DNA from: a virus
DNA: 64,000 nt
Reading direction: 5' to 3' (one strand)
IMG/VR virus record: IMGVR_UViG_3300030419_001484
Coordinates: 1 to 64,000 of that record
Shown: positions 13,067 to 53,551 of the stretch, piece by piece
Position numbering within the stretch: position 1 is the first letter of the stretch
Layout: the number at the start of each line of letters is the position of its first letter
Program-made: the position numbers and the translations under genes
Notes under the pieces: model-generated
The model's input: only the letters and a program-made list of their open reading frames with translations
Database searches by the model: none
What the model was told of the DNA's origin: nothing

Positions 13067-13109
13067 AAACGAATCACCTTTAAATTATCTACTATATTAA
13101 AATATTTTG

Positions 13110-13149
13110 AACCCTTGTAAGTCATTGATTTGCAAGGGTTTATTTTTTT
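13110..13149 (+). terminator. intrinsic terminator with an IHF-consensus site in its loop
   Basis: AACCCTTG...CAAGGGTT plus T-run; TAAGTCATTGATT inside. Confidence 0.55.
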
Positions 13150-13151
13150 AC

Positions 13152-13180
13152 TTGACAAAGAAAGAATAGTATGATACTTT
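13152..13180 (+). promoter_or_regulatory. sigma70-type early promoter (others with -35 at 13427, 18092, 18784, 28012, 29659, 41558, 41909, 42286, 52672, 52744, 52991, 53381)
   Basis: TTGACA/TTGACT, 16-17 nt spacer, TAnnnT -10. Confidence 0.75.
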
Positions 13181-13214
13181 AATGGTAGAGTTAATAAAAA
13201 AGAGAGAATCATAT

Positions 13215-13430
13215 ATGACAAATACAACATTTTCAACTTCTATCAATTTCGTCAATTTAGACGAAGATGGTATATTAGTATGTGATAATGCGATTGTTTC
13301 TCTGGGTAACATCAGAGGTACTACAAGAGCAGAATCAGAAGCTGCAGCTATTTCAACCTTTGAGGTATTAGGGTTGTCTGCTGACCAATTGGTGTCGATT
13401 GAAACAACTAAGATAAAAAATAGTACTTGA
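13215..13430 (+). CDS. early hypothetical protein
   Basis: follows promoter and AGAGAGA leader. Confidence 0.65.
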   Translation: MTNTTFSTSINFVNLDEDGILVCDNAIVSLGNIRGTTRAESEAAAISTFEVLGLSADQLVSIETTKIKNST

Positions 13431-13494
13431 CATATTCTGTCAATGTGTTACTATAATAGTGTAAGTGATTCGTTAATAATATAGAGAGGTAAAT

Positions 13495-13890
13495 ATGGCT
13501 TATATTTCACAACAAGATAAAAAAGACCTTGCTCCTGCGATCAAGGCAGTTCTTAAAAACTATGGTATGAAAGGTACTATTTCGATAAATCATCACAGTT
13601 CATTAGTTGTTACTGTTCAATCTGGTGTTCTAGATTTCAGTGGACATTTTAGTCATGGTGATGGTTACATTCAAGTTAACACTTATCACATAGACAATTG
13701 GTATTCTGGAACTATCAGAAATTTTCTTAAAGACCTTGTAAAGGCAATGAAAGGAAACAAGTGGTATGACAAATCAGATGCAATGGTTGATTATTTTGAT
13801 ACTGCATACTATGTTGATATTAATATTGGAAAATGGAATAAACCTTATGTCCAAACAAAAACTAATCCTCATGTAAAGGTGGCTGCATGA
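13495..13890 (+). CDS. conserved early phage protein
   Basis: MAYISQQDKK..YDKSDAMVDYFDTAYY..IGKWNKPY. Confidence 0.75.
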   Translation: MAYISQQDKKDLAPAIKAVLKNYGMKGTISINHHSSLVVTVQSGVLDFSGHFSHGDGYIQVNTYHIDNWYSGTIRNFLKDLVKAMKGNKWYDKSDAMVDYFDTAYYVDINIGKWNKPYVQTKTNPHVKVAA

Positions 13891-14174
13891 TTGATAGTAT
13901 AATCAAAGCAAAGATAAAGGGGGATATAAGTATGTCAGTTCCTTTATATTTGATGATGAGTTATGCATATTACGAAGAAGATAAACCGATTGCAACTGAT
14001 GGCACTTTTGATGAGGTTTCAAAATTAATGTTAAAGAATTGGAAAAAGATAAAACACCATCACAAAGAACTAATAAATCTTGATAATCTAAAGGCTGGAA
14101 CTTACTTGGGTAAATATCCAACAATAGTAAAAGATACTTTAGAAATGGTAAGAAAGAGATATAACAATGATTAG
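13887..14174 (+). CDS. NAD-dependent ligase Ia-domain-like small protein
   Basis: SYAYYEEDKPIATDGTFD resembles LigA YYxxDxPxxxDxxYD. Confidence 0.55.
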   Translation: MIDSIIKAKIKGDISMSVPLYLMMSYAYYEEDKPIATDGTFDEVSKLMLKNWKKIKHHHKELINLDNLKAGTYLGKYPTIVKDTLEMVRKRYNND

Positions 14175-14292
14175 ACTTGCAATGTTTTTAATAGGGTTAT
14201 ATATTAGAGTTCTTATAGGTGCAACAGTGTTTATTTGGGGAAGTCTGATTATAATACATTTTTTAGGAATAATTTAGAGAGGTATAAATATT

Positions 14293-14679
14293 ATGGTGAA
14301 AATAAAACGTAGAAGAAAACCAATGACTCCAGAACAACGTGCGGCCGCAGTTGAACGTCTTGCAAAGGCAAGAGAAGCAAAAGGGCCTGCACAACATCAA
14401 AATATACATCCAGAGGTTCTTGCAAGACCAGACGACCATTTTCTATCTTTAAAAAATGTTAGGTCTTGGATAAAGAGTAACAAAGAACAATTGAGTTCAC
14501 TCAGAGGTGAGGTCAGACGAGATGTAAAGGGCGCTAAGGCGAAGTTTCATAGTGTAGAGGGTTATATAAGACATATGCAACACTATCTCAAACATGGTGA
14601 TTGGATAGATAATGCATATGGAGAACATCAAGAAAAGAGTGTTAAATGGGTGACGATAAAGGCCAGTGGAGTAATATAA
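14293..14679 (+). CDS. conserved hypothetical protein
   Basis: RKPMTPEQRAAAVERLAKAR. Confidence 0.7.
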   Translation: MVKIKRRRKPMTPEQRAAAVERLAKAREAKGPAQHQNIHPEVLARPDDHFLSLKNVRSWIKSNKEQLSSLRGEVRRDVKGAKAKFHSVEGYIRHMQHYLKHGDWIDNAYGEHQEKSVKWVTIKASGVI

Positions 14680-15044
14680 TCATAGGGCCATGGGAGTCTA
14701 AAACTCCCAAAGGTGGTAAGAATAGAGATCAGATAATCAAAGAAGAAATGGATGCGATTGATGAACTCTCTCAAAAAGCTATGATTAAATTAATAGAAGT
14801 CCTTAAAGAATATGAGGTGAATATAACTTCAAAGGATTTCTATAGACATATTGGTTTTATGAATGAAACACTCAAAGCAAAACTATTTAAAGAAATGGGT
14901 TATGAACACCCATTGTCTGATTTAGTAAATCATATAATAATCCCATCAATGACTAAGGATAAGAGGGATATATACACAAAGTTTAGAGCTGACTTAGTTC
15001 ATGAACTTGTAGAATATTTGGAGCAAGATTTTGAAGAAGAGTGA
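14646..15044 (+). CDS. hypothetical protein
   Basis: SNIIIGPW motif; ORF track. Confidence 0.6.
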   Translation: MGDDKGQWSNIIIGPWESKTPKGGKNRDQIIKEEMDAIDELSQKAMIKLIEVLKEYEVNITSKDFYRHIGFMNETLKAKLFKEMGYEHPLSDLVNHIIIPSMTKDKRDIYTKFRADLVHELVEYLEQDFEEE

Positions 15045-15714
15045 AGTTAATTTTATTACACCATTTAGTCCGACTATTATGCAGACAGAGGTGCCAGATA
15101 AATTTATTAAACTAATTAATAAGATTGGTGATGAAGTTTTAAGTGATGATAAAAAATCTACACAATTTGATTGGTCAGATCATCTAGTAGGAAAAGTTCA
15201 TAAAGAAGTTCAGATACCAATGATAAACCCAAACGATGCTAATTATTGTAAATCAATTTTAAAAGAAAATTGTCTTATGTATTTAAAAGAACTTATTAAT
15301 AAAGGTCGTGCATACATAGATAACATGATTTTACATCATCCAACAAAAGGTAACTTACATCCAACAGAATCTAATATTAACATAAGTCAATCTTGGATAG
15401 TAAGTCAATATAAGGGTGAGTACAACCCATGGCATCAACACAGTGGACATCTATCAGCAGTCATATATCTTAAAGTACCAAAGGGTATGGATGAGTTCTT
15501 TGAGAAAGAGGGTGAAGACCATTATCCTGTTGGTGGTGCAATACAGTTTATGCAAGGTGATAAACAAAACTTTAGAAACGATACATTAACATTTAGACCA
15601 GAGGTTGGTAAGATGTTAATATTCCCATCGTGGTTGAAACATTCAGTTTATCCTTTTGATGTAGACGGAGAAAGAAGAAGTATGAGTTTCAATGCATATT
15701 ATGTGAGTAGATGA
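15031..15714 (+). CDS. 2OG-Fe(II)-type oxygenase (HxH type)
   Basis: PWHQH, FPSWLKHSV, RRSMSFN. Confidence 0.85.
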   Translation: MKKSEVNFITPFSPTIMQTEVPDKFIKLINKIGDEVLSDDKKSTQFDWSDHLVGKVHKEVQIPMINPNDANYCKSILKENCLMYLKELINKGRAYIDNMILHHPTKGNLHPTESNINISQSWIVSQYKGEYNPWHQHSGHLSAVIYLKVPKGMDEFFEKEGEDHYPVGGAIQFMQGDKQNFRNDTLTFRPEVGKMLIFPSWLKHSVYPFDVDGERRSMSFNAYYVSR

Positions 15715-16217
15715 TGAAAATAATAGACAACATTCTAAGTAAAAAAGAACTTGATTATATAAAAACTAAAATGATGCATAATCAAGAAATGCCTTGGTAC
15801 TTTAATGATGCGATAGCAACGGATCGTGAAAATGACCCCATGTATTATTTTACCCACAACTTTTTTCTTTCAAGAGGTAGCACTGATCAGTTTAAATATG
15901 AAAAGTCTGATTGGTTTCATATAATACGTTCAATATTGGATTTTATAAAACCTAAAGTATTGATTAGGTCTAAAGGGAATATGTATCCATCAACTCCAAC
16001 AATCGTTCATCATGATAGCCATATTGATCTTCCATATGAACATAAAGGTGCGATATTCTATGTTAATACAAATAATGGTATGACAGTGTTAGAGGATGGA
16101 ACTGAAGTTGAAAGTATAGAAAATAGACTACTTCTTTTTGACTCTAGTAAAAAACACAATAGCACATCTTGTACAGATGCGAAAGTAAGAGTAAATATTA
16201 ATTTTAATTATTTTTAA
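15711..16217 (+). CDS. 2OG-Fe(II)-type oxygenase
   Basis: HID, KKHNS, RVNINFNY. Confidence 0.8.
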   Translation: MMKIIDNILSKKELDYIKTKMMHNQEMPWYFNDAIATDRENDPMYYFTHNFFLSRGSTDQFKYEKSDWFHIIRSILDFIKPKVLIRSKGNMYPSTPTIVHHDSHIDLPYEHKGAIFYVNTNNGMTVLEDGTEVESIENRLLLFDSSKKHNSTSCTDAKVRVNINFNYF

Positions 16218-16228
16218 ATGAGACAGAT

Positions 16229-17068
16229 ATGATACTAATTGATATGAATCAGATTGCATTAGCAAATCTGATGATGAACATGAAAATGAATAATAATAAA
16301 ACCATAGATGAAAATATGGTTAGACACATGATACTTAATTCTATTCGTATGTATAGAAAAGAGCATCATAATGAATATGGTGAGGTGGTTCTTACTTGGG
16401 ACTCAAAACATTCATGGAGAAGAGATTATTTTCCAGAGTACAAGGCCAGTCGTAGAAAAGGTCGAGAAGAGTCAGACTTAAATTGGGAAGACATTTTTGG
16501 AACTCTCAATAAGATACGAAATGAAATCAAACAAAACTTTCCATACAAATATATTGAGGTTTTCGGTGCAGAAGCAGATGACATCATAGGATTTTTGTGT
16601 GAAGAAAACAGAGATGAAAAGATTATGATAATCTCTGGTGATAAAGATTTTATTCAACTACAAAAATATCCAAATGTTACACAGTGGAGTCCTATTACAA
16701 AGAAACAAGTCAACGGATTTGACCCCACTATATATTTAAAAGAACATATTTTAAAAGGTGATACAAGTGATGGTGTACCGAATGTACTGTCACCAGATAA
16801 CACTTTTTCAGATGGATTAAGACAACGACCTTTGAGTAGAAAGAAAATACAATCTTGGCTCAATAGTGTAGAGGATTGTAATGATGAGGTGAAAAGAAAT
16901 TATCAAAGAAACTTAACTCTGATTGACTTATCAAAGACACCAGAGGAACTAAAAAATCAAATCAGATTAGAATACAATAACGCACCACATGGTGATCGTA
17001 GTAAACTCTTAAATTATTTTATGATATATAAACTCAAAGAGTTAACTGAAAACATTGGAGAATTTTAA
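16229..17068 (+). CDS. rnh: T4-type RNase H (5'-3' exonuclease)
   Basis: ILIDMNQ, WRRDYFPEYKASR, EADDII, SGDKDFIQLQ, GDTSDGVPN. Confidence 0.95.
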   Translation: MILIDMNQIALANLMMNMKMNNNKTIDENMVRHMILNSIRMYRKEHHNEYGEVVLTWDSKHSWRRDYFPEYKASRRKGREESDLNWEDIFGTLNKIRNEIKQNFPYKYIEVFGAEADDIIGFLCEENRDEKIMIISGDKDFIQLQKYPNVTQWSPITKKQVNGFDPTIYLKEHILKGDTSDGVPNVLSPDNTFSDGLRQRPLSRKKIQSWLNSVEDCNDEVKRNYQRNLTLIDLSKTPEELKNQIRLEYNNAPHGDRSKLLNYFMIYKLKELTENIGEF

Positions 17069-17069
17069 A

Positions 17070-17516
17070 ATGCCAGGAAATACATTATTATTTTCAGAAG
17101 TCCTTGATAAAGTACATAAGGCGAAAACAAAAGACCAAAAGGTCAAAATACTAAAAGAACACAATACACCAGCATTGAGGTCAGTATTAAAATCATCTTT
17201 TGACCCAAACATCAAGTGGGTTTTACCAGAGGGTGAAGTTCCTTATAGAAAGAACGATGCACCTATTGGAACTGAACATACAACACTTGCAACAGAATCA
17301 AGTAAGTTATGGCACTTTATTAAAGGTGGTGACGGACAGACTCCTCAATGGAAAAAAGAACAGATGTTTGTTCAGATGTTAGAGGGTTTACATCAAACAG
17401 AAGCAGATCTTTTGATTAATGCAAAAGACAAAAAGTTACATCAAGTTTACAAAGGTTTATCTACAAACGTAGTGATGGAAGCTTTTGGTTGGAATGAGGA
17501 ATTTAAACTACCATGA
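17070..17516 (+). CDS. conserved T4-like protein downstream of rnh
   Basis: FDPNIKWVLPEGEVPY..EQMFVQMLEGLH..KDK. Confidence 0.75.
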   Translation: MPGNTLLFSEVLDKVHKAKTKDQKVKILKEHNTPALRSVLKSSFDPNIKWVLPEGEVPYRKNDAPIGTEHTTLATESSKLWHFIKGGDGQTPQWKKEQMFVQMLEGLHQTEADLLINAKDKKLHQVYKGLSTNVVMEAFGWNEEFKLP

Positions 17517-17731
17517 TGACAGATGAAGAAATAGAAACCGCAATTAAAAATATTGAAAATGGTAAGAGTATTAACTTTAATGATCAGTTTAAAATACTTG
17601 CAACAATTTACAAAAAAATTAAACAGTTACATCAACAAACATATAGTCCACCAACAAACAATGATTTAAATAAATCTATAAATGATCTTGCAAGTCGTAT
17701 TAGTATCATAGAGGGTAAGTTAAAAGGATGA
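17513..17731 (+). CDS. hypothetical protein
   Basis: ORF track, coupled to neighbours. Confidence 0.5.
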   Translation: MMTDEEIETAIKNIENGKSINFNDQFKILATIYKKIKQLHQQTYSPPTNNDLNKSINDLASRISIIEGKLKG

Positions 17732-18102
17732 ATATTGATGTTAATAAAAGGTTAGCGTCAAAAGAACAATACGAGTATTTAAAAAATTTACATTATCAAC
17801 CTTGTAATTTACCAAATGTTGGTGTGCATTATGGAGATATCAGATCAATCTGTATAAACAAAGAGTCATCAGCCCATGTGAGTGAAGGACACATGAAATC
17901 TTTTACTCAACAATATAATAATAAAGTGGTACAAAATGATATACCAATTAATCAACCAACAGAAATAATAAATGAAACAGCGAGAAAAGTTTATCTTATT
18001 TTAGATGGCTGTATGTTATTAGATGAAAAGATTGGTGATTACACCATACGTTTTAAAAAAGGTGTAGACCCAGATATAAAAAAAATAAGTGTTGACAATT
18101 GA
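17728..18102 (+). CDS. hypothetical protein
   Basis: ORF track, coupled to neighbours. Confidence 0.55.
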   Translation: MNIDVNKRLASKEQYEYLKNLHYQPCNLPNVGVHYGDIRSICINKESSAHVSEGHMKSFTQQYNNKVVQNDIPINQPTEIINETARKVYLILDGCMLLDEKIGDYTIRFKKGVDPDIKKISVDN

Positions 18103-18154
18103 AACGAATCAGTGTATATTAGTAGTATAGTTAATAATAAAGAGAGAGAATATT

Positions 18155-18526
18155 ATGATAGTAGAACAAAGTGCGACAACATTAGAAGATGGAATTGATA
18201 CCCTAATTAATTCTGCAAAAGCAGATTATGTTAAAAGATATGGTAGTGATGTCAACTCAGATGTTGCAAAGAAAATGATAGGTCAGTTTAACGATGGATT
18301 TGTTGTTAAGTCTGGTTCAAAGTATGTAAAAATTATGTGTGGTAATGGTGGAACGCCTGGTGGTTCATGCTGGGGGTTTGTTGTGAAAGAAGACACACCA
18401 AAATTTAAAAAGGGTGACATTTTAAAACCTGCTGGTTGGAATAAACCTGCTACTAACGCAGCTAGAGGTAATGTGTTAGATGGTAATTACGAAATACATT
18501 GGACAGGGCCTGTATATCTGTCCTAA
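18155..18526 (+). CDS. conserved early phage protein
   Basis: WGFVVK..FKKGDILKPAGWNKPATNAARGNV. Confidence 0.75.
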   Translation: MIVEQSATTLEDGIDTLINSAKADYVKRYGSDVNSDVAKKMIGQFNDGFVVKSGSKYVKIMCGNGGTPGGSCWGFVVKEDTPKFKKGDILKPAGWNKPATNAARGNVLDGNYEIHWTGPVYLS

Positions 18527-18532
18527 AGGAAC

Positions 18533-18591
18533 ACGACCTATATGACGTACCTCTCTCAAACTCGCAAAACTCAAAAAGTCATATAGGTCGT
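18533..18591 (+). promoter_or_regulatory. 14-bp perfect hairpin with CCUCUCUC-containing loop
   Basis: ACGACCTATATGAC / GTCATATAGGTCGT, 31-nt loop. Confidence 0.7.
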
Positions 18592-18602
18592 ACAGAGAGA
18601 AT

Positions 18603-18794
18603 ATGAAACACAGAACAAAATTATTTTATATAAACATAGATGGTGAAGATACTTATCTAATCGCAGAGGGTGAAGATGAGGGTAAGGCTGCACAAAACGC
18701 TGTAAAAGAATTTCAGAAAATACAAAAGATATACGGAGAACAAAATCTTCCCATAACGAATATAACTCGTATGGATAAAATAGTTGACAATTAA
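18603..18794 (+). CDS. hypothetical protein
   Basis: AGAGAGA leader. Confidence 0.6.
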   Translation: MKHRTKLFYINIDGEDTYLIAEGEDEGKAAQNAVKEFQKIQKIYGEQNLPITNITRMDKIVDN

Positions 18795-18833
18795 AACGAA
18801 TCAGTGTATAATATAAACATAATAGAGAGAGAT

Positions 18834-19217
18834 ATGTTTATAGAATTTAGAAATACCAATAAAAAAAGACAACGAACCATTGAGGATGCTCTTTGGTTCG
18901 CAAAGTCGTATCTGTTACCTAGACACAAGATTGATGAAATTGAGATTGAGTCTGTAAATGGTTTACATGCAGATGGTGATTGTTATGATGCAGATGATAG
19001 ATCATTCATCATAAGAGTGAATAAAGACTTATCAAAAGAAGATTTACTTACCACAATCTTTCATGAATTTGTTCATATTAAGCAATTTATCAAAAAAGAG
19101 TATGGTGATATATTTGCAATAAATAACGATGAGGTCGCATACTTAGACAGACCTTACGAAATAGAGGCGTTTAAATTAGAAAAGGAACTATTAGAGGAGT
19201 ACAACAATGTTACTTGA
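18834..19217 (+). CDS. zincin metallopeptidase
   Basis: TIFHEFVHIKQ and PYEIEA. Confidence 0.8.
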   Translation: MFIEFRNTNKKRQRTIEDALWFAKSYLLPRHKIDEIEIESVNGLHADGDCYDADDRSFIIRVNKDLSKEDLLTTIFHEFVHIKQFIKKEYGDIFAINNDEVAYLDRPYEIEAFKLEKELLEEYNNVT

Positions 19218-19650
19218 AACTGCATTTATGTGTCTTGCACTTAACACATATCATGAGGCTAAGAACCAATCAATGATAGGTCAAGTTGCAACTGCACAAG
19301 TGGTTATGAACAGAGTTAAAGATAGTCGATTTCCAAATACAATTTGTGAGGTCGTTAAACAAGGCCCACACAGACCATCTTGGGAAGACCCAAACAAAGA
19401 ATATCCTATTCGACACAAGTGCCAGTTTAGTTGGTACTGTGACGGCAAAAGTGATGAACCAAGAAGAAATAGTAAAGAATGGTTTAAAGCACAAGAGTAT
19501 GCAAGAATAGTTTTATCTGGCAGAATAGTGCTTGATGTTACAGAGGGTGCTACACACTACCATGCAACTTATGTAAGACCAGCATGGGCAAAAACAAAAA
19601 CAAGAACGACTCGAATAGAGTCACATATATTTTATAGGTGGGAGAAGTAA
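19207..19650 (+). CDS. SleB-family cell wall hydrolase
   Basis: CLALNTYHEA, VVMNRV, CQFSWYCDG, GATHYHA, HIFY. Confidence 0.92.
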   Translation: MLLETAFMCLALNTYHEAKNQSMIGQVATAQVVMNRVKDSRFPNTICEVVKQGPHRPSWEDPNKEYPIRHKCQFSWYCDGKSDEPRRNSKEWFKAQEYARIVLSGRIVLDVTEGATHYHATYVRPAWAKTKTRTTRIESHIFYRWEK

Positions 19651-20788: not shown

Positions 20789-20795
20789 GGTAAAA

Positions 20796-22278: not shown

Positions 22279-22279
22279 A

Positions 22280-27707: not shown

Positions 27708-28015
27708 TAACATTAACTGAAAACGCAAAAGAATATCTAACAGATATGGTATCCAAGTCAGATGATACATATGCAAGATTATCTGTCAAGGGTGGTGGTT
27801 GTGCTGGTTTCGAATACAAGTGGGAAACTACAGACACAACCGAAAAAGGAACACTCATAGATGATGTCTTGGTGTTAGATACTATGGCTGAGATGTTTCT
27901 ACTTGGTTGCACTGTGGACTACATAAAAGAATTTGGTGGTTCTTACTTAACAGTTAAGAATCCTAACGCACACTCCTCATGTGGGTGTGGAACAAGTTTC
28001 TCAATTAAGACTTGA
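27704..28015 (+). CDS. iscA: HesB/IscA A-type Fe-S carrier protein
   Basis: ITLTENA, GGGCAGFEY, NPNAHSSCGCGTSF. Confidence 0.92.
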   Translation: MITLTENAKEYLTDMVSKSDDTYARLSVKGGGCAGFEYKWETTDTTEKGTLIDDVLVLDTMAEMFLLGCTVDYIKEFGGSYLTVKNPNAHSSCGCGTSFSIKT

Positions 28016-28046
28016 CAAACGGAACGAATCATGTTATAAATATAGT

Positions 28047-28110
28047 ATAGTTCGTTGATACGGATTGAAAGATGGACAGGACTTGGGTGCGATACCCAAC
28101 ACCTCCACCA
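28047..28110 (+). ncRNA. ssrA: permuted tmRNA, acceptor (3') piece
   Basis: T-arm TTGGG-TGCGATA-CCCAA then CACCTCC-A-CCA; TAGTTC and TGATACG pair with GAACTA and CGTATCG in the coding piece; 5' boundary approximate. Confidence 0.88.
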
Positions 28111-28113
28111 AAC

Positions 28114-28228
28114 ACTCGTCCAGTACAACGCCTTTGTAGTCGTAATGCACATGGTAAATTACTCACGGCAGATCGAACACGAATGGTAAGACATTTTAGG
28201 ATTTATCTGGTGTGGCGACCAGACGAGT
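28114..28228 (+). ncRNA. unidentified multi-way-junction RNA inside the tmRNA intervening segment
   Basis: ACTCGTC/GACGAGT closing helix, four internal stems, complementary loops CGCC/GGCG. Confidence 0.55.
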
Positions 28229-28287
28229 ACCTCGCTAAAAGGAGATTAATATGATTTTAGATAATACAATAATGGGGGGTCAAGACG

Positions 28288-28404
28288 ATGAAGAACCCTC
28301 TAGTGCAAACAATAAGTAAGTGGATGTTTAGAGCCTACATTGCATGGAGCATATGTGCAGACATCATAGTGATAGGTGGTATCATATACCTAATCTTTTT
28401 TTAG
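28288..28404 (+). CDS. 38-aa membrane peptide inside the tmRNA intervening segment
   Basis: MKNPLVQTISKWMFRAYIAWSICADIIVIGGIIYLIFF*; GGGGG upstream; stop abuts tmRNA G1. Confidence 0.6.
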   Translation: MKNPLVQTISKWMFRAYIAWSICADIIVIGGIIYLIFF

Positions 28405-28573
28405 GGGGGTGAAATAGGATCGACTGACGTTGAATAGAAAAGTGGAGAACTATCGGTTTACCTCGTATCGGTTAAAAAAACTAAACGCAAACGATGATTT
28501 TGCACCTGTAGATTACGCACTAGCTGCTTAATCGTACTGAGTTCGGTGGGTACTTGGAAACAGAAACCCACCA
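28405..28573 (+). ncRNA. ssrA: permuted tmRNA, coding (5') piece with tag ANDDFAPVDYALAA
   Basis: GGGGGTGAAATAGGATCGAC start; G3:U70 with acceptor piece; tag ORF 28487-28531; terminal GGTGGGT/ACCCACC hairpin. Confidence 0.92.
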
Positions 28574-28604
28574 CAGTTTCAGAGTTTCGCTGACGGGCGA
28601 AAAC

Positions 28605-28789
28605 GTGTCGTGCAAGGAAGAGATTCTCACCAGAGGGTCGAACTTGATTAGTTAGAGGTGGTACTCAGGCATGGTTGCAGAAATGCGTTGTGTCACATCA
28701 ATCTACCGATTGGAACTAGGTTCTGAAAGTATGAAAGAATGGTATCTTGGTCTTTCAGTTGTAGGTGTTAACCTTAGTCCTACCGACAC
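28605..28789 (+). ncRNA. manA-like large structured RNA
   Basis: GTGTCG/CGACAC closure; ACTTGA, GTGGTACTCAGG, CACATC, GTTCT, GGTATC, GTTGTAGGT..TCCTAC recalled as manA-motif-like. Confidence 0.6.
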
Positions 28790-28911
28790 AAATTAATGAT
28801 GCCTATGCGAATAGGTTCGGTTGAAAAAAATCGGTAAGATCATTAAGGGTCACTACTTAATAAGTGCGTGTGGGGTCATGGTTAACCCCACATCTTATAA
28901 ATGGAGTTATT

Positions 28912-29127: not shown

Positions 29128-29718
29128 ATGTCACAATCAATAGATATCTATCTAACCTATTGTGCAATGAAGGCTCACTTTGGAAAAGGTGACTATGACT
29201 TTGTTAAGTTCAATGGTAAGACAAAGGTATCAAGAGACTCTTTCTGGAAAAGAAAAGACAGAGTATGGTTCGTGATGTTGGGTAGAAAGTATAACTCATC
29301 TCTCATAGAGAGTGTTGAAGATTATCTACTCGCAAACTTCTTGGTAGACAACAAAGGATATATAGGTAATTTTAATGACCAGAATTATTTTGATTGGATG
29401 ACTAGAATGTCAAGATTAGAAACATTATTTAAAAACGAAGCAACTAAATTATTTGAGGATGGGAGTTTAGACGTATTGAATGTTCCAGACAACTCTCACC
29501 CAAAACTTCTCAAAGAATATCTTGGTAAAAGAATATCACTAGAAACTATGGTGATACTAGATGGTATCTTTGACTACAGTTCAAAGTGGGATAAGAAAAT
29601 GAATGATGATATCATGTGGCCTGATGTAAAAAAACTTATAGAAAATTATAAAAAGTTCTTGACATATCCACATGATTCGTGTAAGATGGTAGTATTAAAT
29701 TTAACAAAAATGGAGTAG
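29128..29718 (+). CDS. 59: helicase loader gp59
   Basis: YCAMKAHF..YDFVKFNGK..KRKDR..ISLET. Confidence 0.88.
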   Translation: MSQSIDIYLTYCAMKAHFGKGDYDFVKFNGKTKVSRDSFWKRKDRVWFVMLGRKYNSSLIESVEDYLLANFLVDNKGYIGNFNDQNYFDWMTRMSRLETLFKNEATKLFEDGSLDVLNVPDNSHPKLLKEYLGKRISLETMVILDGIFDYSSKWDKKMNDDIMWPDVKKLIENYKKFLTYPHDSCKMVVLNLTKME

Positions 29719-41237: not shown

Positions 41238-41510
41238 ATGTCAGTTGCAAGTACTGTGTATGATAGCACCTGTGTGGTGTGTGATTATGTTAACAATGTA
41301 GTAAGAAGAATGTGGTTAGGAATGCAGAGATCCAGACAATTATCTGCAAACTACAAGATATATGAGGAAATAAAAAGATTTGATGAAGATGCTGGTTACC
41401 ATCTCGCAAATATGAACGACAATACGAACAAACATTATGAAATAGAGATGTCCAAGACAAAACGAATCACTTGGGCGTGGGATATGAAAAACGACATAGA
41501 CAACGAATAG
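41238..41510 (+). CDS. hypothetical protein
   Basis: late promoter at 41179, SD GAGG. Confidence 0.6.
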   Translation: MSVASTVYDSTCVVCDYVNNVVRRMWLGMQRSRQLSANYKIYEEIKRFDEDAGYHLANMNDNTNKHYEIEMSKTKRITWAWDMKNDIDNE

Positions 41511-41548
41511 AATATCTACGAATTTCACCAATAAAAACAATGACTTAG

Positions 41549-41576
41549 AAAAAGGGGTTGACAAGCCCCTTTTTTT
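41549..41576 (+). terminator. intrinsic terminator whose loop is the -35 of the next promoter
   Basis: AAAGGGG-TTGACAAG-CCCC-TTTTTTT. Confidence 0.65.
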
Positions 41577-41618
41577 GTTGTATATTAATAGTATAGTTAA
41601 TAAGAGAGAGAAAAAAAT

Positions 41619-41900: not shown

Positions 41901-41979
41901 AAAAACACTTGACATTATTTGTCATTGTGATATTATAATAGTGTAAGTGATTCGTTTTTAATAAAAAAGAGAGGTTATT

Positions 41980-42147: not shown

Positions 42148-42340
42148 TGGATTTAGAAACACTACAAGAAATAAAGTGGAGATTAGAAAGTGCATCTAGG
42201 TTGTACCTAGAAGGTAACCACTCAGCATCGTCTTGGGCTGTACATGAGGTTATGGGTATATTGAAAGTAGTAGAAGAAAAACTACTTGACTCTGAAAACG
42301 AATCATGTTAGTATGTAAGTGAAGTTAAAAGAGAGAGAAT

Positions 42341-42526: not shown

Positions 42527-42540
42527 AGAGAAGGTATATT

Positions 42541-43232: not shown

Positions 43233-43242
43233 TGGAGATGAT

Positions 43243-43843: not shown

Positions 43844-43945
43844 AGATATTTTAGACAAATATGGTGAGGGTACTAAGTGGGACTTAGACTATGGTAAATT
43901 AGTTATACTTGGTCTTTGTATTTACATTGCAATAAAGGTATCTTA

Positions 43946-46533: not shown

Positions 46534-46744
46534 AAAATTAATACACGAACATTGGGGTGATAGTGATAATAATCGAAGTGCAAAGATATATCATGTAGAA
46601 GATATCATGGATTTCTTTGAGGTTGATTTTTATGAAGATGAACAACTCAAAGAAAGTCGTCAGATGATAACAAACGGAGTTGCACATAGTGAGAGATACG
46701 CTGAAGATGCGGCTGAGAATTGGTGTTTGGGATATATACCTTGA
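46526..46744 (+). CDS. conserved small T4-like protein
   Basis: HSERYAEDAAENW. Confidence 0.7.
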   Translation: MGRKLIHEHWGDSDNNRSAKIYHVEDIMDFFEVDFYEDEQLKESRQMITNGVAHSERYAEDAAENWCLGYIP

Positions 46745-46884
46745 TGGATTTGTTTCGACATTTGAGGATACATACGCAGAAGAAACCAGAAGAAGGCCCA
46801 GAGGAGATGGACTTTCCAGAGATGTATCTAATGGGTCTGGGTGCAACAACAGAACTACCAGATAATTTTGAAAGGAAGAAAACT

Positions 46885-47058
46885 ATGAATTGTTATCACT
46901 GTGAAACAGAGCTTACATGGGGTGGTGACCATGACATAGAAGAAGAATTTGATCATGTGGATGCACACAAGATGGTGACTAATCTCACTTGTCCGAATTG
47001 TGCGACATTTCATTTGGTCTACACACCAAAGTCATTTTTTGAAGAAGGAGAAACATAA
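46885..47058 (+). CDS. zinc-ribbon protein
   Basis: MNCYHCETELTWGGDHD..CPNC. Confidence 0.7.
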   Translation: MNCYHCETELTWGGDHDIEEEFDHVDAHKMVTNLTCPNCATFHLVYTPKSFFEEGET

Positions 47059-47270
47059 TGAACGGATTACACTTTTTATTTATAGGAATTGCACTACTGA
47101 TGATGATGTCAGTAACAGGTTGTAATACACCATACATCACGAAAGATGGTGAGAGATTACTATCAAACTCAGTGGTAGGTTGTGCAGTAGGTCAAGTATT
47201 CTTTGATGATTGTGGAGCAGGAGCTGCAGTGGCTGCTGGTGCAACAATCATTGATGATCAAACAAAATGA
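47058..47270 (+). CDS. small lipoprotein
   Basis: lipobox VTGC; glycine-zipper tail. Confidence 0.6.
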   Translation: MNGLHFLFIGIALLMMMSVTGCNTPYITKDGERLLSNSVVGCAVGQVFFDDCGAGAAVAAGATIIDDQTK

Positions 47271-47821
47271 GTTATGCAACTTGGGACTACTGGACATACA
47301 GAGATTATATCCCACATTACATATGTGATGAGTTAATAAAAAACCACAATAATTTTGATCATGGAACTTTACGAGGTGGTACGATAGATGAAGACATGAG
47401 AAGGAGTGGTGTATGTTGGATAAATTCATCATTCTGGATAAATTTATTTTTTGATATAATTCTAAGAGCAAATCAAGAATCTGAGTTGAATTATAATATA
47501 GTTGGTATGGAGGATTTACAACTCACTAGATATGTCGCACCAGATGGACATTATGATTTTCACATTGATGGAGATGGACACACAAGAAAAAATGTTGATG
47601 ACAATGTAAGAAAACTATCAATGAGTTGTTTACTTACAGACCCAAAAGAATTTGAGGGTGGAAAGTTTCAGTGTCAAAATGGTGGTGAACCATATGATGT
47701 AGAACTCAACAAGGGTGATATTGTCGTATTCCCATCCTATACTTTACATAGAGTTTCCCCTGTAACAAAGGGAGAACGATATTCATTAGTCGCATGGGCC
47801 AATGGAAAGGCATTTACATGA
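47267..47821 (+). CDS. 2OG-Fe(II) oxygenase (PKHD/P4Hc-like)
   Basis: YDFHID, RKLS, FPSYTLHRVSPVTKGERYSLVAW. Confidence 0.9.
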   Translation: MSYATWDYWTYRDYIPHYICDELIKNHNNFDHGTLRGGTIDEDMRRSGVCWINSSFWINLFFDIILRANQESELNYNIVGMEDLQLTRYVAPDGHYDFHIDGDGHTRKNVDDNVRKLSMSCLLTDPKEFEGGKFQCQNGGEPYDVELNKGDIVVFPSYTLHRVSPVTKGERYSLVAWANGKAFT

Positions 47822-48008
47822 AAACACTTGCGTGGGTATTGGTTATACTCAATCAATCACAGACAATTAGTGATGATGAGTTGATATATCCAAGTCTACA
47901 GAAGTGTGAAATGTACGAAAAACAAATCAATCGACCACTTCAAAAAATACAAACATATACATTTTCTGCGTACTGTAAACCCACAGTAATCGACAGAGTA
48001 GAAGAATA

Positions 48009-48548
48009 GTGAGAATAATCCACTTCAATGAGCCATGGCAGCATTTTGAGGTGTATGATTTTATATCATATAATGAACATAAAGAGATAAAAAAACTATT
48101 TAAAACTTTCCCAGATCCACGTTCAACTAATGATAGAATAAGTCACAAGATAGAAAATGAAATGTTGAGAGAAAGATTTAAAGAATTACTTAGATTATTA
48201 AACGTGGAGTGGAACGAGAATAAACACTCAATACACATGGAATTAGACAAAATATCACCTAAATTCAAGTTTCAAATACACACAGATATATGGACAAAGG
48301 TGTTGTCTCTCATCATACATATATCAGAGACAGGACATGGAACAAGGTTATATTCACCACATAAGTCATTTGATGAGTGGCGAACACTGGTTAGAACAAT
48401 GAACTGGACACCAAGAGGTGGTGGTGGGTTTTTAAGAACAGATGAAACTTATCATAGTTTTGACACAATAGAGGACAATATGATGAGACAGACGATACTA
48501 CTAACACTAAGACAAAATAAAAACTGGATGACAGGAGAAGACAATTGA
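48009..48548 (+). CDS. 2OG-Fe(II)-type oxygenase
   Basis: IHTD, GTRLY, YHSF, RQTI. Confidence 0.7.
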   Translation: MRIIHFNEPWQHFEVYDFISYNEHKEIKKLFKTFPDPRSTNDRISHKIENEMLRERFKELLRLLNVEWNENKHSIHMELDKISPKFKFQIHTDIWTKVLSLIIHISETGHGTRLYSPHKSFDEWRTLVRTMNWTPRGGGGFLRTDETYHSFDTIEDNMMRQTILLTLRQNKNWMTGEDN

Positions 48549-49108
48549 AAAAAACTACATTATTTGACATACCAATATGGACAAACAAGATAGATAATTT
48601 CTATTCAGTGAGGAAACAATTAGAGGATGAATTTAATAAATTTCCAGACACGAAGAATGAAATCAATCAAAGTGAGTATCAAAAGTTTTATACAAACAGA
48701 CAAAAAGATAGACCTGGCCTAACACAAAAATTCACAAATATAATATCAAAAGAGATACAAAATTTAGTTTCTGACATAAACAAAAACAGTGATATAAAGA
48801 TAAAAGATTTGACTGTCAAAGATGTTTGGTCAGTGACTTATCAGACAGGGGATTATCAGTCTATACACAATCATGGTTCAACAGGTTTGTCTGGTTTATT
48901 ATTCTTGGATAGTCCTATAGACGGCCCAAATTTGACCATAGTACAACCTTATAATAATTGGATGACGGACACTACTCGTTCTTTTTGTGCAAAGTTTGAA
49001 GAGGGTGCGATGGTTGTATTTCCTAGTTTCTTATTACATTCAAGTGACCCAAACAGATCACACAGACAAAAAAGAGTTATCAGTTGGGATATGGAGATAG
49101 TTCTCTGA
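48545..49108 (+). CDS. 2OG-Fe(II)-type oxygenase (HxH type)
   Basis: IHNH, FPSFLLHSS, KRVISWD. Confidence 0.85.
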   Translation: MKKTTLFDIPIWTNKIDNFYSVRKQLEDEFNKFPDTKNEINQSEYQKFYTNRQKDRPGLTQKFTNIISKEIQNLVSDINKNSDIKIKDLTVKDVWSVTYQTGDYQSIHNHGSTGLSGLLFLDSPIDGPNLTIVQPYNNWMTDTTRSFCAKFEEGAMVVFPSFLLHSSDPNRSHRQKRVISWDMEIVL

Positions 49109-49866
49109 TGTTCTTCAGAAAGAAGAAAACTGACGATATAATTCTTGATTGTTATACCTATAATCCTTATGCGTATAACTTTGCAAAAATAAACTATGGA
49201 TATCATTACATTCCAGAGTGGTGGAAAAAGACACCAAAAATTCTAGAAAAAAGAATTGCGACAATCAAAAACTGTCCAGCATTTGTTGAGTATTACACGA
49301 AAGGTATTGTCTTACCGATGTGGTGTGAACTTATAATACAGATTGAACCAAAGGGAAGTGAACAATTATTTACTTGGAAAAGTTCGCATAAAAAGTTCGG
49401 TATCAATCCCCATATACAAGAACAATTTAAAGGGTTTTCAAAAGAGGATGGACATAATCTAAAAATGGTGTCGCCTTGGTATATAAAGTGTAAAGAGGAG
49501 ATTTCTTTTACATATACACAACCAACTTGGAATCAGAGAGATACAATATTCGACCTTATATTACAACCAGGCGTGTTAAGTTTCAAATCAAATATGCAGA
49601 CAAATCTAAATTACTTCTTTCAACAAAAAAACACACAACAGAACATACACATACAACCATTAACACCAATGGTGATTATGCATCCAATATCAGAGAGAAA
49701 AGTAAAACTCAGACATCACTTTTTGACAAGTAAAGAAGACGAAGATGGAGCTCTATCTGGAATTAACAACGGAATGTTATTTGATAATTATCCAGAAAAT
49801 GTACATAAAAAGGCAAAGAAATTATTTGAAAAAATAGATGAAGTAGATGGAGGGATATACAAATAA
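49108..49866 (+). CDS. conserved marine-phage beta-sandwich protein
   Basis: PEWWK, TIKNCPAF, SPW, PG, TP motifs. Confidence 0.55.
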   Translation: MFFRKKKTDDIILDCYTYNPYAYNFAKINYGYHYIPEWWKKTPKILEKRIATIKNCPAFVEYYTKGIVLPMWCELIIQIEPKGSEQLFTWKSSHKKFGINPHIQEQFKGFSKEDGHNLKMVSPWYIKCKEEISFTYTQPTWNQRDTIFDLILQPGVLSFKSNMQTNLNYFFQQKNTQQNIHIQPLTPMVIMHPISERKVKLRHHFLTSKEDEDGALSGINNGMLFDNYPENVHKKAKKLFEKIDEVDGGIYK

Positions 49867-51047
49867 TGAAACTTGCTGTAATTGGAAAGGGAACTGTTGG
49901 TTCTTTGGCAGTTTTACATTTTCTAACATATACTGATTGGGATATAGATTGGGTATCTGACCCAAACACTCCAACCACTGCTGTTGGTGAAGGAACTACA
50001 ATTCGTGTTCCGTCTGCTCTTGCAAACTCTATATTAGAATTTTCTCATGATGATTTGATTGCAATGAATGGAACTCCAAAGGTGGGTATTTGGAAAGAAA
50101 ATTGGGGTGGTGGAAAAAAGTATTTACATCCATTTCCCATTGATTTAAGTGGATTACATTTCAATGCGATTGAGTTTCAGAACAAAGTATTTGAGATGTT
50201 ACAAGGTAATCAAAGAATTACAATGGTCAACGAGAGAGTGACAGATCCACAATCATATTCTGCTGATTACGTCATGGTGTGTTCTGGTTCTCCTAAAGAT
50301 CTAGATGAGTATAATATACTTGACTCCATTGTGGTGAACTCTGCATATGTTACTCAATGTTTCTGGGATACACCGACCTTTAATTATACACTCACACTTG
50401 CAAGGCCATGGGGTTGGGTATTCGGTATTCCTCTTCAGAACAGATGTTCAATCGGTTACGTTTATAATTCTGATTTTGTGTCTCTGAATGAAATTAAAGA
50501 GGATGTGAAGAACGTATTTCAACAGTATAACTTGACACCAAGTGATACCACAAATCATCTGGAATTTAAGAACTATGTACGAAAGAATAATTTTACTTCA
50601 AAAGTGGTCTATAATGGTAACGCATCATTCTTTTTAGAACCACTCGAAGCGACATCAACAACTACCTCTGATGACGTTTCACGTTTCGCATATGATATGT
50701 GGAATGGTAATATAAGTGTAGATGAAGCGAACAGAAAACACTTACACAATATTGAAGAAGTACTTGATATGATCGCTCTACATTATTGTAACAATATCGT
50801 CTATCGAAATGATTTCTGGGATAATGCAATACGGATTTCCTGTAACAGAATCAAAAACTCTTTAGACACTAATCCTGATTTTCAAAACCTTATTCATAAT
50901 TCCATACAAGGAACAGAGAATATGTTATCTGTATTCGGATTGAGTGATCCTGTACATTATGGTACATGGTCTTGGAAATCTTGGAATATCAATGTAAAAA
51001 ATCTTCAAATAAAAAGAACACTCAAATATTTAATGGGAGAGAAATAA
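49866..51047 (+). CDS. tryptophan-halogenase-like flavoprotein
   Basis: VIGKGTVG, VGEGT, GWVFGIPL, GNASFFLEPLEATS. Confidence 0.8.
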   Translation: MKLAVIGKGTVGSLAVLHFLTYTDWDIDWVSDPNTPTTAVGEGTTIRVPSALANSILEFSHDDLIAMNGTPKVGIWKENWGGGKKYLHPFPIDLSGLHFNAIEFQNKVFEMLQGNQRITMVNERVTDPQSYSADYVMVCSGSPKDLDEYNILDSIVVNSAYVTQCFWDTPTFNYTLTLARPWGWVFGIPLQNRCSIGYVYNSDFVSLNEIKEDVKNVFQQYNLTPSDTTNHLEFKNYVRKNNFTSKVVYNGNASFFLEPLEATSTTTSDDVSRFAYDMWNGNISVDEANRKHLHNIEEVLDMIALHYCNNIVYRNDFWDNAIRISCNRIKNSLDTNPDFQNLIHNSIQGTENMLSVFGLSDPVHYGTWSWKSWNINVKNLQIKRTLKYLMGEK

Positions 51048-51287
51048 ATGGGATTATTCAGTTGGGGTGGAAAACCCATAAAAGTAGAAACATTAGAACA
51101 AACACACAGGAAACTAGAAAGAGATATACTTACGTTAGAGAAGATGAACAAGGTATCAAACGTACATGAACATGAGATTAAAGAGAAGAAAAAACAGAAA
51201 CTTGCAATCAAAGATGAACTGGAACGTATGAAAAAGAACTTCAATGGTAAGACCTATGTAAAAGACGGAATAGAGAGTGACTTCTAG
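51048..51287 (+). CDS. DUF465/YdcH-like coiled-coil protein
   Basis: HRKLE..KKQKLAIKDEL. Confidence 0.65.
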   Translation: MGLFSWGGKPIKVETLEQTHRKLERDILTLEKMNKVSNVHEHEIKEKKKQKLAIKDELERMKKNFNGKTYVKDGIESDF

Positions 51288-51649
51288 ATACGAACTATTT
51301 AAAGGACATTACAAGATACTGAGAGAACAACGCAGACGAGAATCGATTTTTCGGACATTAGTTTCTGTATATCCATCTGGTCTATATCATCCTGTTTATT
51401 CTATGTGGAACTGTATGATATGGGCATGGAGTAATAGTGGAACACACAATTTAGATGGTAAAGGAAAGATAAGAAAGTGAACCACTATTCAACAACATCA
51501 TATAGAGAGTATTTTCGTATGAAAACCCATGACGAGAGATGGGTAAAACGTATGATGGAGAAGTATAATTTATCAATACATTATCCACGATGTGTAGAGT
51601 ACGTTCTTAGAAGAGAGGCTTATCTAGAGTGGTTACAAGGAGGATATCT

Positions 51650-52267
51650 ATGAACGTGTTACCTTTATTTTCATCACCTGTCACAATGGATATGTATGAG
51701 TTAGACAGAGATGAAATAGAACTCATTAAGAGAGAACCATTTCACTCACACACATATGACCTTGATGGTTTGTCTAGTGATAATCGTAATATACTTACAA
51801 AAACACCAAACTTATTTCATGTTGTTCATTCACATATAAAGAAATCACTGTATGATAATTTAAAAATAGTGGATAATATAGGATATAAAGTAACATCTTC
51901 TTGGTTGAATAATCATCCACCAAGACATTCTGCACATGGACATTCTCATGTGAATAGTATGTTTACAGGAGTATTATATGTAGATTGTCCTCAAGACAGT
52001 GGAGAACTTATATTCGTGATGCCCTATACAACACCCACATGGAACACAGGAACAATACAACCAAACATAAAAGAACATAACATATTCAATAGTAGAGAGT
52101 GGAGATTACCAACACCAACAGGTATGTGTATATTATTTCCATCACATTTACGACATGGAGTGACTACAAATGAAAGTGACCATAATAGATATTCAATAGG
52201 ATTTAATATCATGTTGGAGGGTCACATAGGTGTAAGTGATGAAACAATTAATATAAGATTACTATGA
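51650..52267 (+). CDS. 2OG-Fe(II)-type oxygenase (HxH type)
   Basis: HSHVNS, FPSHLRHGV, RYSIGFN. Confidence 0.87.
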   Translation: MNVLPLFSSPVTMDMYELDRDEIELIKREPFHSHTYDLDGLSSDNRNILTKTPNLFHVVHSHIKKSLYDNLKIVDNIGYKVTSSWLNNHPPRHSAHGHSHVNSMFTGVLYVDCPQDSGELIFVMPYTTPTWNTGTIQPNIKEHNIFNSREWRLPTPTGMCILFPSHLRHGVTTNESDHNRYSIGFNIMLEGHIGVSDETINIRLL

Positions 52268-52455
52268 CATATCCAGAAACAATCATATATACAGATAAAG
52301 AAAGAATATACTGTAATGGTGACTTTGGAAACGATCACCCAAGAGTATATTATTCAGTACCCACAGAAGGGTTTGTAGTTTGTGGTTATTGTGATACAAA
52401 GTATACTAGAGATGATAACTTTAAAGACTATACTAATACTTACGACTCTGAGTAA
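52264..52455 (+). CDS. zf-CHCC zinc-finger protein
   Basis: CNG...HPRVY...CGYC. Confidence 0.85.
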   Translation: MTYPETIIYTDKERIYCNGDFGNDHPRVYYSVPTEGFVVCGYCDTKYTRDDNFKDYTNTYDSE

Positions 52456-52518
52456 TCTATTCATAGTAGATGACGACCTAGTGAGAACAAGACCGATAGG
52501 GGGATATCGGAAAGAATA

Positions 52519-52646
52519 TGGTACTTGATGGGAATGTATGGTATTTTCGGACACTATTTAAAAAGGTATAAAAAAACATAGAGTTGTTGTGTTCTTACTT
52601 TGTAGTCTATCGTCAGAATTACCCCACAGTCCCCCAGATTTTACCA
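52519..52646. promoter_or_regulatory. two convergent triplets of TGGGN-like boxes with 10-bp period (MraZ-box-like)
   Basis: TGGTA/TGGGA/TGGTA at 52519/52529/52539; CCCCA/CCCCA/TACCA at 52622/52632/52642. Confidence 0.45.
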
Positions 52647-52778
52647 CAGACAGACAGTAGAAACGAATCAGTTGACAGGTATCAAGTGATAGTATAGAGT
52701 ATCAAGTCCTGTAAGTCTTTGATTCTAAAGGGAAATAAAACACTTGACAACCACACGAATCTCTGATACATTATAAGT

Positions 52779-52977
52779 GTAGTTAGTAAAAAGGTTAAAG
52801 ACAGACATTAGGCATGTGTTGATACTAACTTGTTGGTCACTCATTAACTGTCGTAAAAGCCCTCCTTTTTACTTTCTACACAATGGGTGTCCGATCATGA
52901 GGACTCAAACAAACACATAACAAAAACTTAACCCAGACTGATGAGCGGTGGCATAACAAGTAGGTCTGGGTTTTTTT
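52779..52977 (+). ncRNA. candidate ~200-nt early small RNA
   Basis: promoter at 52744, no substantial sense ORF, terminator 52930-52977. Confidence 0.55.
52930..52977 (+). terminator. intrinsic terminator
   Basis: AACCCAGAC/GTCTGGGTT plus T7. Confidence 0.7.
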
Positions 52978-53024
52978 GTGTCGAAAAGACTTGACAAGTA
53001 TTACAGATTCGTGTATACTTATAG

Positions 53025-53270
53025 TGTAGTTAATAGAGAGGTGATTCGATATGGTGTAAAAGGAAACGGAGATAGACACCCTCAACCTTTGGGAAGTTTA
53101 TCGTTTGGAGAGATTATGGAGTTCGGAGTTCCAGCCTAGGATCGTTAGTGTAAAAGGTTACAACCCCAGATGAGGTGGGTCATTCGATAAAGGAGTGATT
53201 CATAAGAGTAGTCTGGGGTTGACTTGTATCTGGGGTAGGTGATTCGTTTCGGCCTTATACCCCCCTTAAA
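53025..53270 (+). ncRNA. candidate second early structured RNA
   Basis: promoter at 52991; ATG-GTG-TAA mini-ORF; long hairpin 53161-53221; boundaries approximate. Confidence 0.45.
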
Positions 53271-53551
53271 TCTGTGATTCGTTTTGTAATCTATAAATGT
53301 AATAAGTATCCAGAGAGATTTTTCAGAGTACCCCCCCCCAAAACTGAGCGGCTTTTATTTTCACTTCCCTAGATAAATACTTGACACATATACCGAATCA
53401 TGTTATAGTAAGAATATGAGATTAATGACTGACGATTATATTATGAATATAACAAGTGTTCCTATATGGAGTGAGTGGACTCCGTAAGGGGCCGCAGTAG
53501 ACTTGAAGTTTCTTTCATTGTTTCATATGAATAAATTATTAGGAGTATATT

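Follow-up and report, generated by a model that had tools for sequence, protein, structure and literature searches.

The closest described systems are the sigma70 promoters of Caulobacter crescentus that are activated by GcrA and methylated by CcrM. The methylated site preferred by GcrA is TGATTCG (MEME consensus) or, more broadly, YGAKTCK, and in GcrA-regulated promoters such sites lie narrowly around −20 or are spread from +2 to +30, almost never at −10 (Haakonsen 2015, PMC4647560). Wu et al. placed them at −20 ± 1 and −30 ± 2, or at +5 to +30 (Wu 2018, PMC5887438; Wu 2023, PMC9976885). The monomeric DNA-binding domain of GcrA must occupy the spacer face opposite the polymerase, and its C-terminal domain holds domain 2 of sigma70; on the non-template strand the upstream-box scaffold used for cryo-electron microscopy (PcsM) reads TTGACA-CCCGGG-CGAATC-CCTGC-TATAAT, and the downstream-box template (PmipZ) carries (A/T)GAGTCG (Wu et al., PMC5887438; PMC9976885). 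Here we examine a heptamer, CGAATCA or its complement TGATTCG, that recurs in early promoters of an uncultured marine T4-like phage. The window, a stretch of 64,000 nucleotides, is the first 64 kb of IMG/VR record IMGVR_UViG_3300030419_001484 (contig G000), which is linear, 73.8 kb long and ~48% complete by CheckV, so that half of the genome is missing. Its G+C content is 35%.

We counted 14 exact copies of the heptamer in the window, compared with 4.3 ± 2.1 expected by chance (14 or more in 0 of 100 shuffles). Nine of the 14 were in intergenic DNA, which makes up 11% of the sequence. An initial annotation of the window had listed 16 sites and had proposed that the word sits at a fixed place in promoters with a 17-nt spacer. 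All 16 were found (the 14 exact heptamers, CGAATCT at 52756 and AGATTCG at 53005), as was the register it described: five promoters with CGAATCA, one with CGAATCT and two with the inverse word. The promoters and remaining copies are as follows, box positions being relative to predicted starts (−10 hexamer placed at −12 to −7, start assumed 7 nt past it).

18092-18120, + strand: sigma70-type promoter, CGAATCA at 18105-18111 (spacer positions 8-14, about −22 to −16)
18784-18812, + strand: sigma70-type promoter, CGAATCA at 18797-18803; near-duplicate of the 18092 cassette
28012-28040, + strand: promoter of the transfer-messenger RNA (tmRNA), TTGACA, 7 nt, CGAATCA (28025-28031), tgt, TATAAA; tmRNA start at ~28049
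29659-29687, + strand: promoter with an inverted box, TGATTCG at 29673-29679, GATTC centre at about −18
42286-42314, + strand: promoter, TTGACT, 7 nt, CGAATCA (42299-42305), tgt, TAGTAT; drives small early open reading frames (ORFs) from 42341
52744-52772, + strand: promoter, CGAATCT at 52756-52762, shifted upstream by one base relative to the main class; GAATC at −22 to −18
52991-53048, + strand: promoter with two boxes, inverted AGATTCG in the spacer (53005-53011) and TGATTCG at about +20 (53042-53048)
53381-53409, + strand: promoter, TTGACA, 7 nt, CGAATCA (53394-53400), tgt, TATAGT
13427-13472, + strand: sigma70-type promoter without a spacer box; TGATTCG at 13466-13472 on the non-template strand, about +6 to +9
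41909-41954, + strand: paralogue of the 13427 promoter, TGATTCG at 41948-41954, about +6 to +9
52664-52700, + strand: promoter TTGACA-N17-TAGAGT; CGAATCA at 52664-52670 abuts the −35 upstream, centre about −40
13070-13076, + strand: heptamer with no promoter assigned, just 3′ of an ORF end and ~80 nt upstream of promoter 13152
41463-41469, + strand: heptamer with no promoter assigned, within ORF 41238-41510
53240-53246 and 53275-53281, + strand: two TGATTCG copies outside coding sequence, the second followed after 9 nt by a late-type TATAAAT

The register was tight. Promoters 18092, 18784, 28012, 42286 and 53381 had TTGACA/T, 7 nt, CGAATCA, 3 nt and the −10 hexamer; promoter 52744 had 6 nt, CGAATCT and 4 nt; promoters 29659 and 52991 had 8 nt, (T/A)GATTCG and 2 nt. 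The GAWTC centres consequently fell at −20 in one promoter, −19 in five and −18 in two. All eight had the −35 and −10 elements of sigma70-type promoters (TTGACA/T, 17 nt, TAnnnT/A), several with TGn. The extended word was exact in 6 of the 8 spacer boxes (the other two being AGATTCG and CGAATCT) and in all three downstream boxes, where TGATTCG lay a few to ~20 nt past the predicted start (promoters 13427, 41909 and 52991; centres ~+6 to +9 in two and ~+20 in one). One further promoter (52672) had the word just upstream of its −35. Taken together, the word was present within −40 to +30 in 11 of ~14 intergenic sigma70-type promoters, and it was confined to that class, with essentially no box in ten late-type TATAAATA promoters.

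The fixed position withstood a positional enrichment test against shuffled spacers. GANTC was centred at −20 to −18 in 8 of 23 promoters (matches to TTGAC[AT]-N17-TAnnn[TA] over the 73.8-kb contig), whereas the shuffles averaged 0.22 and never exceeded 3 (5000 trials). Because 18092/18784 and 13427/41909 are near-duplicate cassettes, independent events number fewer than eight. The GAWTC pentamer alone was not enriched in intergenic DNA relative to composition (18 vs. 15.8), and GANTC overall was mildly depleted (154 vs. 219 ± 13.5; Markov observed/expected ratio, O/E, 0.87). That is, the signal resides in the extended word and its position, and the initial annotation was right to treat fixed position rather than raw count as the evidence. 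With depletion so mild and no intergenic enrichment of GAWTC, we dropped GANTC statistics as a signature of CcrM. We concluded that the box at this fixed position is a genuine promoter element under selection.

Comparison with relatives showed that the box is conserved. The closest cultured relatives of G000 by gp6 identity are Methylophilales phage Melnitz (52%; L229-L236), which infects OM43, and Pelagibacter phages Mosig (L267-L274) and HTVC008M (L221-L228), both at 50%, which infect SAR11 (strain HTCC1062). A syntenic IMG/VR relative, G001 (L205-L212), is 145 kb long and 95% complete. In nearer relatives with 81-87% gp6 identity (L001, L004, L008, L192, L197), CGAATCA was kept in orthologous promoters while other spacer bases had changed. 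The 53381 box, for example, was retained in L001, L008 and L192 despite differing spacer bases, and in the L001 orthologue of promoter 52744 the box had moved 2 nt and was still near −20. The initial annotation had counted the tmRNA among the genes under the box; the box in that promoter is real in G000 but absent from the orthologous promoters of G001 and L166, and its presence in only one of the compared phages indicates that boxes are gained and lost.

A scan of IMG/VR with the full promoter pattern returned at least 119 contigs. Among the matches listed, ~45 were relatives of G000 or G001, ~15 were relatives of a second phage, G002, and many were neither; G+C content ranged from 31 to 51%. 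G002 is a 155-kb jumbo-phage fragment without nucleotide similarity to the window, whose terminase is ~55% identical to those of PA5oct and Atu_ph07, and it had the same box architecture in ~22 promoters (consensus TTGACAttctaaaCGAATCActaTATAAA). A logo of 45 instances was partly circular, since many of the contigs had been retrieved by means of that heptamer; in G000, G001 and L001-L080, which are free of this bias, every instance read CGAATCA. Other spacer words were observed in related phages: a dyad, tttgttNNNNaaaacatg, in ~12 promoters of Melnitz and 3 of G001, and (T/C)TCTTGAA(T/C)G in a sister clade (L068, L075, L076, L080). These lineage-specific words may be operators of other factors.

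The box follows the published rules for GcrA in strand as well as in place. Across G000, G001 and G002, CGAATCA is the form of 13 of the 14 heptamers found upstream of a −10 and TGATTCG that of all 14 found downstream, which is the orientation in the two reference promoters, PcsM and PmipZ. Positions relative to predicted starts were near −20 ± 1 or within +2 to +30. Word, place and strand are thus all as expected of a reader anchored to domain 2 of sigma70. Furthermore, because the GcrA word is fixed at one spot in most host-type promoters, the phage probably borrows a host factor to start its genes. We therefore favor the reading, at a probability of roughly 55%, that the sigma70-type early promoters of this phage work like the GcrA boxes of Caulobacter and are read by host GcrA on the polymerase. 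The proposal that the early programme is wired to GcrA and methylation is thus partly supported, by word, position, strand and promoter class, and its S-phase part is an extrapolation from Caulobacter.

Such promoters might operate in the following way. RNA polymerase of an alphaproteobacterial host would carry GcrA bound to sigma70 domain 2, and the DNA-binding domain of GcrA would dock on adenine-methylated GANTC, on the spacer face away from the polymerase. Once docked, GcrA would help the polymerase to bind and to form the open complex, an effect established for PcsM and PmipZ of Caulobacter. Injected DNA would bear methyl marks set in the previous cycle, either by CcrM of the host or by a phage enzyme, and would fire the early promoters strongly; freshly replicated DNA, hemimethylated or unmethylated, would fire them less. 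GcrA as the reader, methylation of the box, dependence on that methylation, shut-off coupled to replication and any tie to the host cell cycle or S phase are what we infer here. A bolder extension, which we offer as doubtful, is that abundant marine phages of several unrelated lineages tuned their early promoters into an optimal template for GcrA-loaded polymerase, such that methylation of the injected genome would serve as a timer: replication would dilute the mark, and early genes, that of tmRNA included, would shut off without a phage switch protein.

If GcrA is the reader, the host would be an alphaproteobacterium that has GcrA. According to the literature SAR11 has both CcrM and GcrA. Two 1.2-Mb single-contig alphaproteobacterial genomes matched a SAR11 16S probe with two mismatches. 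In each we found a full-length CcrM orthologue of 353 amino acids (E = 1.5e-136 against 6pbd), and each encodes a GcrA that can be aligned with Caulobacter GcrA over the DNA-binding helix region and the sigma-interacting domain. A SAR11-type host is feasible because these genomes encode both proteins. Attempts to name the host by other routes were abandoned. The tmRNA gave only two weak partial BLAST matches in 301 alphaproteobacterial genomes, and an alpha-type tmRNA is no proof of an alphaproteobacterial host because OM43 phage Melnitz carries one too (PMC9004378). A search of 185,579 species genomes with the strict promoter pattern yielded 18 singletons dispersed among unrelated taxa, as many as expected by chance. 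Among the 301 genomes, TTGAC-N8-CGAATC never exceeded 5 per genome; the total was 215 vs. ~74 for a reversed control, an imperfect one in that dinucleotides were altered. CGAATCA-N3-TAnnnT showed no excess in ten small genomes with GcrA. The 301-genome tallies include two unpublished genomes (G048, G248), on which no specific claim is based. Two short T4-like phage fragments were also binned in metagenome-assembled genomes (MAGs) labelled Methylobacillus (L238) and Verrucomicrobiales (L248), and L250, from a MAG labelled Rickettsiales, had the same box promoter and no similarity to the compared phages. These three bins look like binning artefacts rather than host evidence.

Several observations weigh against GcrA as the reader. 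The main weakness is the missing cultured phage-host link: the box architecture was not found in HTVC008M, Mosig, Cr30, Atu_ph07 or Phosso, all cultured phages of hosts with GcrA and CcrM, so that no cultured phage-host pair ties the box to GcrA. The identity of the host and the methylation of phage DNA are also matters that we infer. SAR11-like genomes lack these box promoters in their own DNA. An OM43-type host is also conceivable, the gene content of G000 and G001 being at least as near to OM43 phage Melnitz as to the SAR11 phages. A G000-like fragment of 2.5 kb with a box promoter was binned in a Methylophilaceae MAG (the one labelled Methylobacillus), although binning of a contig this short is weak evidence; a search of 41 genomes belonging to the family of this MAG gave no GcrA match above the GcrA-family cut-off. 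Placement does not agree everywhere either. Two upstream boxes in the window are inverted, contrary to the reference promoters, and the copy at −40 is outside the published GcrA range. In G001, promoters 110513, 132435, 139922 and 140179 have TGATTCG at −7 to −1, where it shares the final base of the −10 (TATAG[TGATTCG]taa), and a fifth (63819) has TGATTCT there, where Caulobacter sites are almost absent. Lastly, the methyltransferases of G001 and G002 described below are only ~28% identical to CcrM and are its distant relatives.

Among the phages without the box, HTVC008M, Mosig and Melnitz had no box promoters, and any heptamers were in coding-like DNA. We tried the cultured phages of GcrA hosts as a positive control, counting TTGAC-N8-10-GANTC against a control pattern: 5 vs. 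2 in Cr30 (Caulobacter), 12 vs. 4 in Atu_ph07 (Agrobacterium) and 16 vs. 7 in Phosso (Sinorhizobium). These amount to at most a 2-3-fold excess, with no heptamer consensus, and the Cr30 heptamers were coding, so that none of the three served as a positive control. GANTC is avoided almost fully by HTVC008M (43 sites, Markov O/E 0.17) but not by Mosig (0.76), a phage of the same SAR11 strain. GATC sites are almost lacking in Mosig and Melnitz (O/E 0.05) and scarce in G000 (0.31).

Could the heptamer be the operator of some other protein, independent of methylation? This might be a phage early regulator, acting as activator or spacer repressor, or a host factor. We think it unlikely, but related phages do carry other spacer words (tttgttNNNNaaaacatg, TCTTGAAYG) in the same promoter type, so spacer operators seem common in the group and a reading by another protein is kept alive. 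The cultured phages of GcrA hosts without the box speak for it as well, as do the missing half of G000 and its early ORFs, most of which lack a known function. On the other hand, the word, the −20 position, the copies at +2 to +30 and the mirror orientation would all have to equal the GcrA rules by coincidence, and these promoters, whose −35 and −10 elements are already close to consensus, serve the earliest genes, at a time when no phage protein could yet have been made. The unrelated box lineages moreover share no candidate reader gene: no DNA-binding gene was found to be common to the box phages yet missing from box-free ones. As candidates for a phage-encoded reader we rejected the genes present in G000, G001 and G002 but not in HTVC008M or Melnitz. 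They encode a membrane protein, PAAR proteins, a cytidylyltransferase, an IMPDH/GMP-reductase-like enzyme, a lipase and, except in G001, a DUF7717-like protein. The initial annotation had named a MotA-like phage factor as one alternative that would overturn its proposal, and neither MotA nor AsiA (PF09114, PF09010) was found in G000, G001 or G002. The search for gcrA and ccrM in the rest of the genome that it had called for found no GcrA and no N6/N4 methyltransferase gene in G000 (73.8 kb, ~48% complete); no GcrA gene was found in any of G000-G005. The missing half of G000 corresponds to the part of G001 that encodes a 514-amino acid beta-class N6/N4 methyltransferase, and G002 encodes one of 288 amino acids.

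Those two enzymes, together with a site that is a known methyltransferase target placed within the spacer, would also suit a switch in which RNA polymerase senses GANTC methylation directly, with no cofactor, and injected and replicated DNA differ in promoter strength. Dam-sensitive promoters exist in some phages and transposons. We nevertheless judged such a switch improbable, since the conserved flanks (C...A) exceed what a GANTC methyltransferase needs and fit the GcrA preference, base-specific contacts by the sigma70 holoenzyme are few between −22 and −16, and the mirrored strands on either side of the −10 indicate a reader anchored at that element. Least credible to us, and very improbable, is a box without function of its own, inherited with a spreading promoter cassette (by duplication or recombination) or serving as a DNA-shape element of strong promoters. 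The near-identical cassettes 18092/18784 and 13427/41909, the AGTATAGTTAATA and AGAGAGAG stretches shared by early leaders and the unconserved box of the tmRNA promoter are what one might expect from it. However, the box is kept while the spacer around it diverges, stays near −20 even when shifted and is found in phages without nucleotide similarity to G000, and the shuffled spacers predict 0.22 boxes where 8 were observed.

Promoter 18092 drives an early gene of 123 amino acids (18155-18526, DUF7717-like), and its L197 orthologue keeps the box; promoter 18784 drives 18804-19217 and a cell-wall hydrolase gene. Promoter 29659 is upstream of a 63-amino acid ORF, a 264-amino acid ORF and gp32. 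The spacer adjoining its inverted box (29659-29681) reads TATCCACA, an 8/9 match to the DnaA-box consensus, TTATCCACA. Promoter 52744 is predicted to drive a non-coding transcript of ~190 nt that ends at a hairpin and T-run (52934-52978). It belongs to a 1.1-kb non-coding stretch (52455-53550) with four sigma70-type promoters, 7 of the 16 listed word copies, two hairpin and T-run ends (~52934-52978, ~53330-53360) and a two-codon ORF (ATGGTGTAA at 53052). Two or three small RNAs are probably made from this stretch, although 52400-53600 gave no match in Rfam. At 41545-41575, the −35 of promoter 41558 is in the loop of a terminator-like hairpin (aaaaaggggTTGACAagccccttttttt), so that terminator and next promoter overlap. 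Early leaders (e.g., 18121-18150 and 41587-41615) have a common AGTATAGTTAATA start followed by a ribosome-binding stretch of the AGAGAGAG type, as they do in G001 and, in similar form, in Melnitz.

G000 has the T4-type genes gp5, gp6, gp32, gp59, RNase H and a gp48-like gene, along with PhoH, ThyX, a class II ribonucleotide reductase and many 2OG-Fe(II) oxygenases. Its RNAs are an alpha-type two-piece tmRNA (28008-28575), a manA RNA motif and tRNA-Thr. Marine plankton metagenomes contain this phage. The tmRNA and gp32 are partly covered by RNA-library contigs at 90-99% identity, of which many fall below 95% and thus probably stem from relatives; they are assembled contigs, from which starts are not readable. 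At 28576-28846, contigs of two runs (X16, X19) join both ends with AAT between them and omit 269 nt with the manA motif, suggesting that related phages lack the manA element.

Marine T4-like phages of streamlined heterotrophs time their genes without the MotA/AsiA machinery, which they lack. If GcrA does read the box, this would be the first phage early programme wired to the GcrA/CcrM epigenetic module, and TTGACA-N7-CGAATCA-N3-TATAAT would be a signature for assigning uncultured phages to GcrA hosts. GcrA function would become testable in SAR11-type bacteria, where little is known of it. The idea is directly testable with existing Caulobacter reagents (purified RNA polymerase, GcrA and CcrM).

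A literature search found no paper describing such phage promoters, but three phage systems offer partial likenesses. The middle promoters of T4 also belong to a T4-like phage and have a fixed extra word whose reader acts through sigma70. There, however, a MotA box at ~−30 stands in for the −35 and works only with the phage proteins MotA and AsiA, whereas in G000 the −35 is intact, the word is at −20 and no motA or asiA was found. Early promoters of pelagimyophages and Melnitz are of the sigma70 type, with no middle promoters and with tmRNA behind an early promoter (Buchholz 2022, PMC9004378). Phage group, early promoter type and tmRNA arrangement are thus as in G000; Melnitz, Mosig and HTVC008M differ in lacking the box, their spacers having other conserved words or none. 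Alphaproteobacterial phage genomes carry CtrA-binding sites, and a scan of phage genomes with a GcrA matrix gave no positional signal (Mascolo et al. 2022, PMC9437464). In that case too, an alphaproteobacterial cell-cycle regulator is co-opted through sites in phage promoter regions; the regulator and the site (TTAA-N7-TTAA) are different, and the box pattern seen here is not described there.

The GcrA-activated promoters of Caulobacter remain the nearest match, with differences. The phage boxes are on a lytic phage genome rather than at cell-cycle genes, are paired with a near-consensus −35 and −10 and often TGn, and occur in most early promoters rather than in a small regulon. Some copies lie at −40 (window) or at −7 to −1 (relative G001). 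Dependence on GcrA and methylation, established for the Caulobacter promoters, is putative for the phage boxes. Compared with the PcsM scaffold, the main class is 1 bp nearer the −10, and promoter 52744 matches the scaffold exactly. What the phage and Caulobacter promoters share is the heptamer, its places, its strand on each side of the −10, the promoter class and, for the most part, a single box per promoter.

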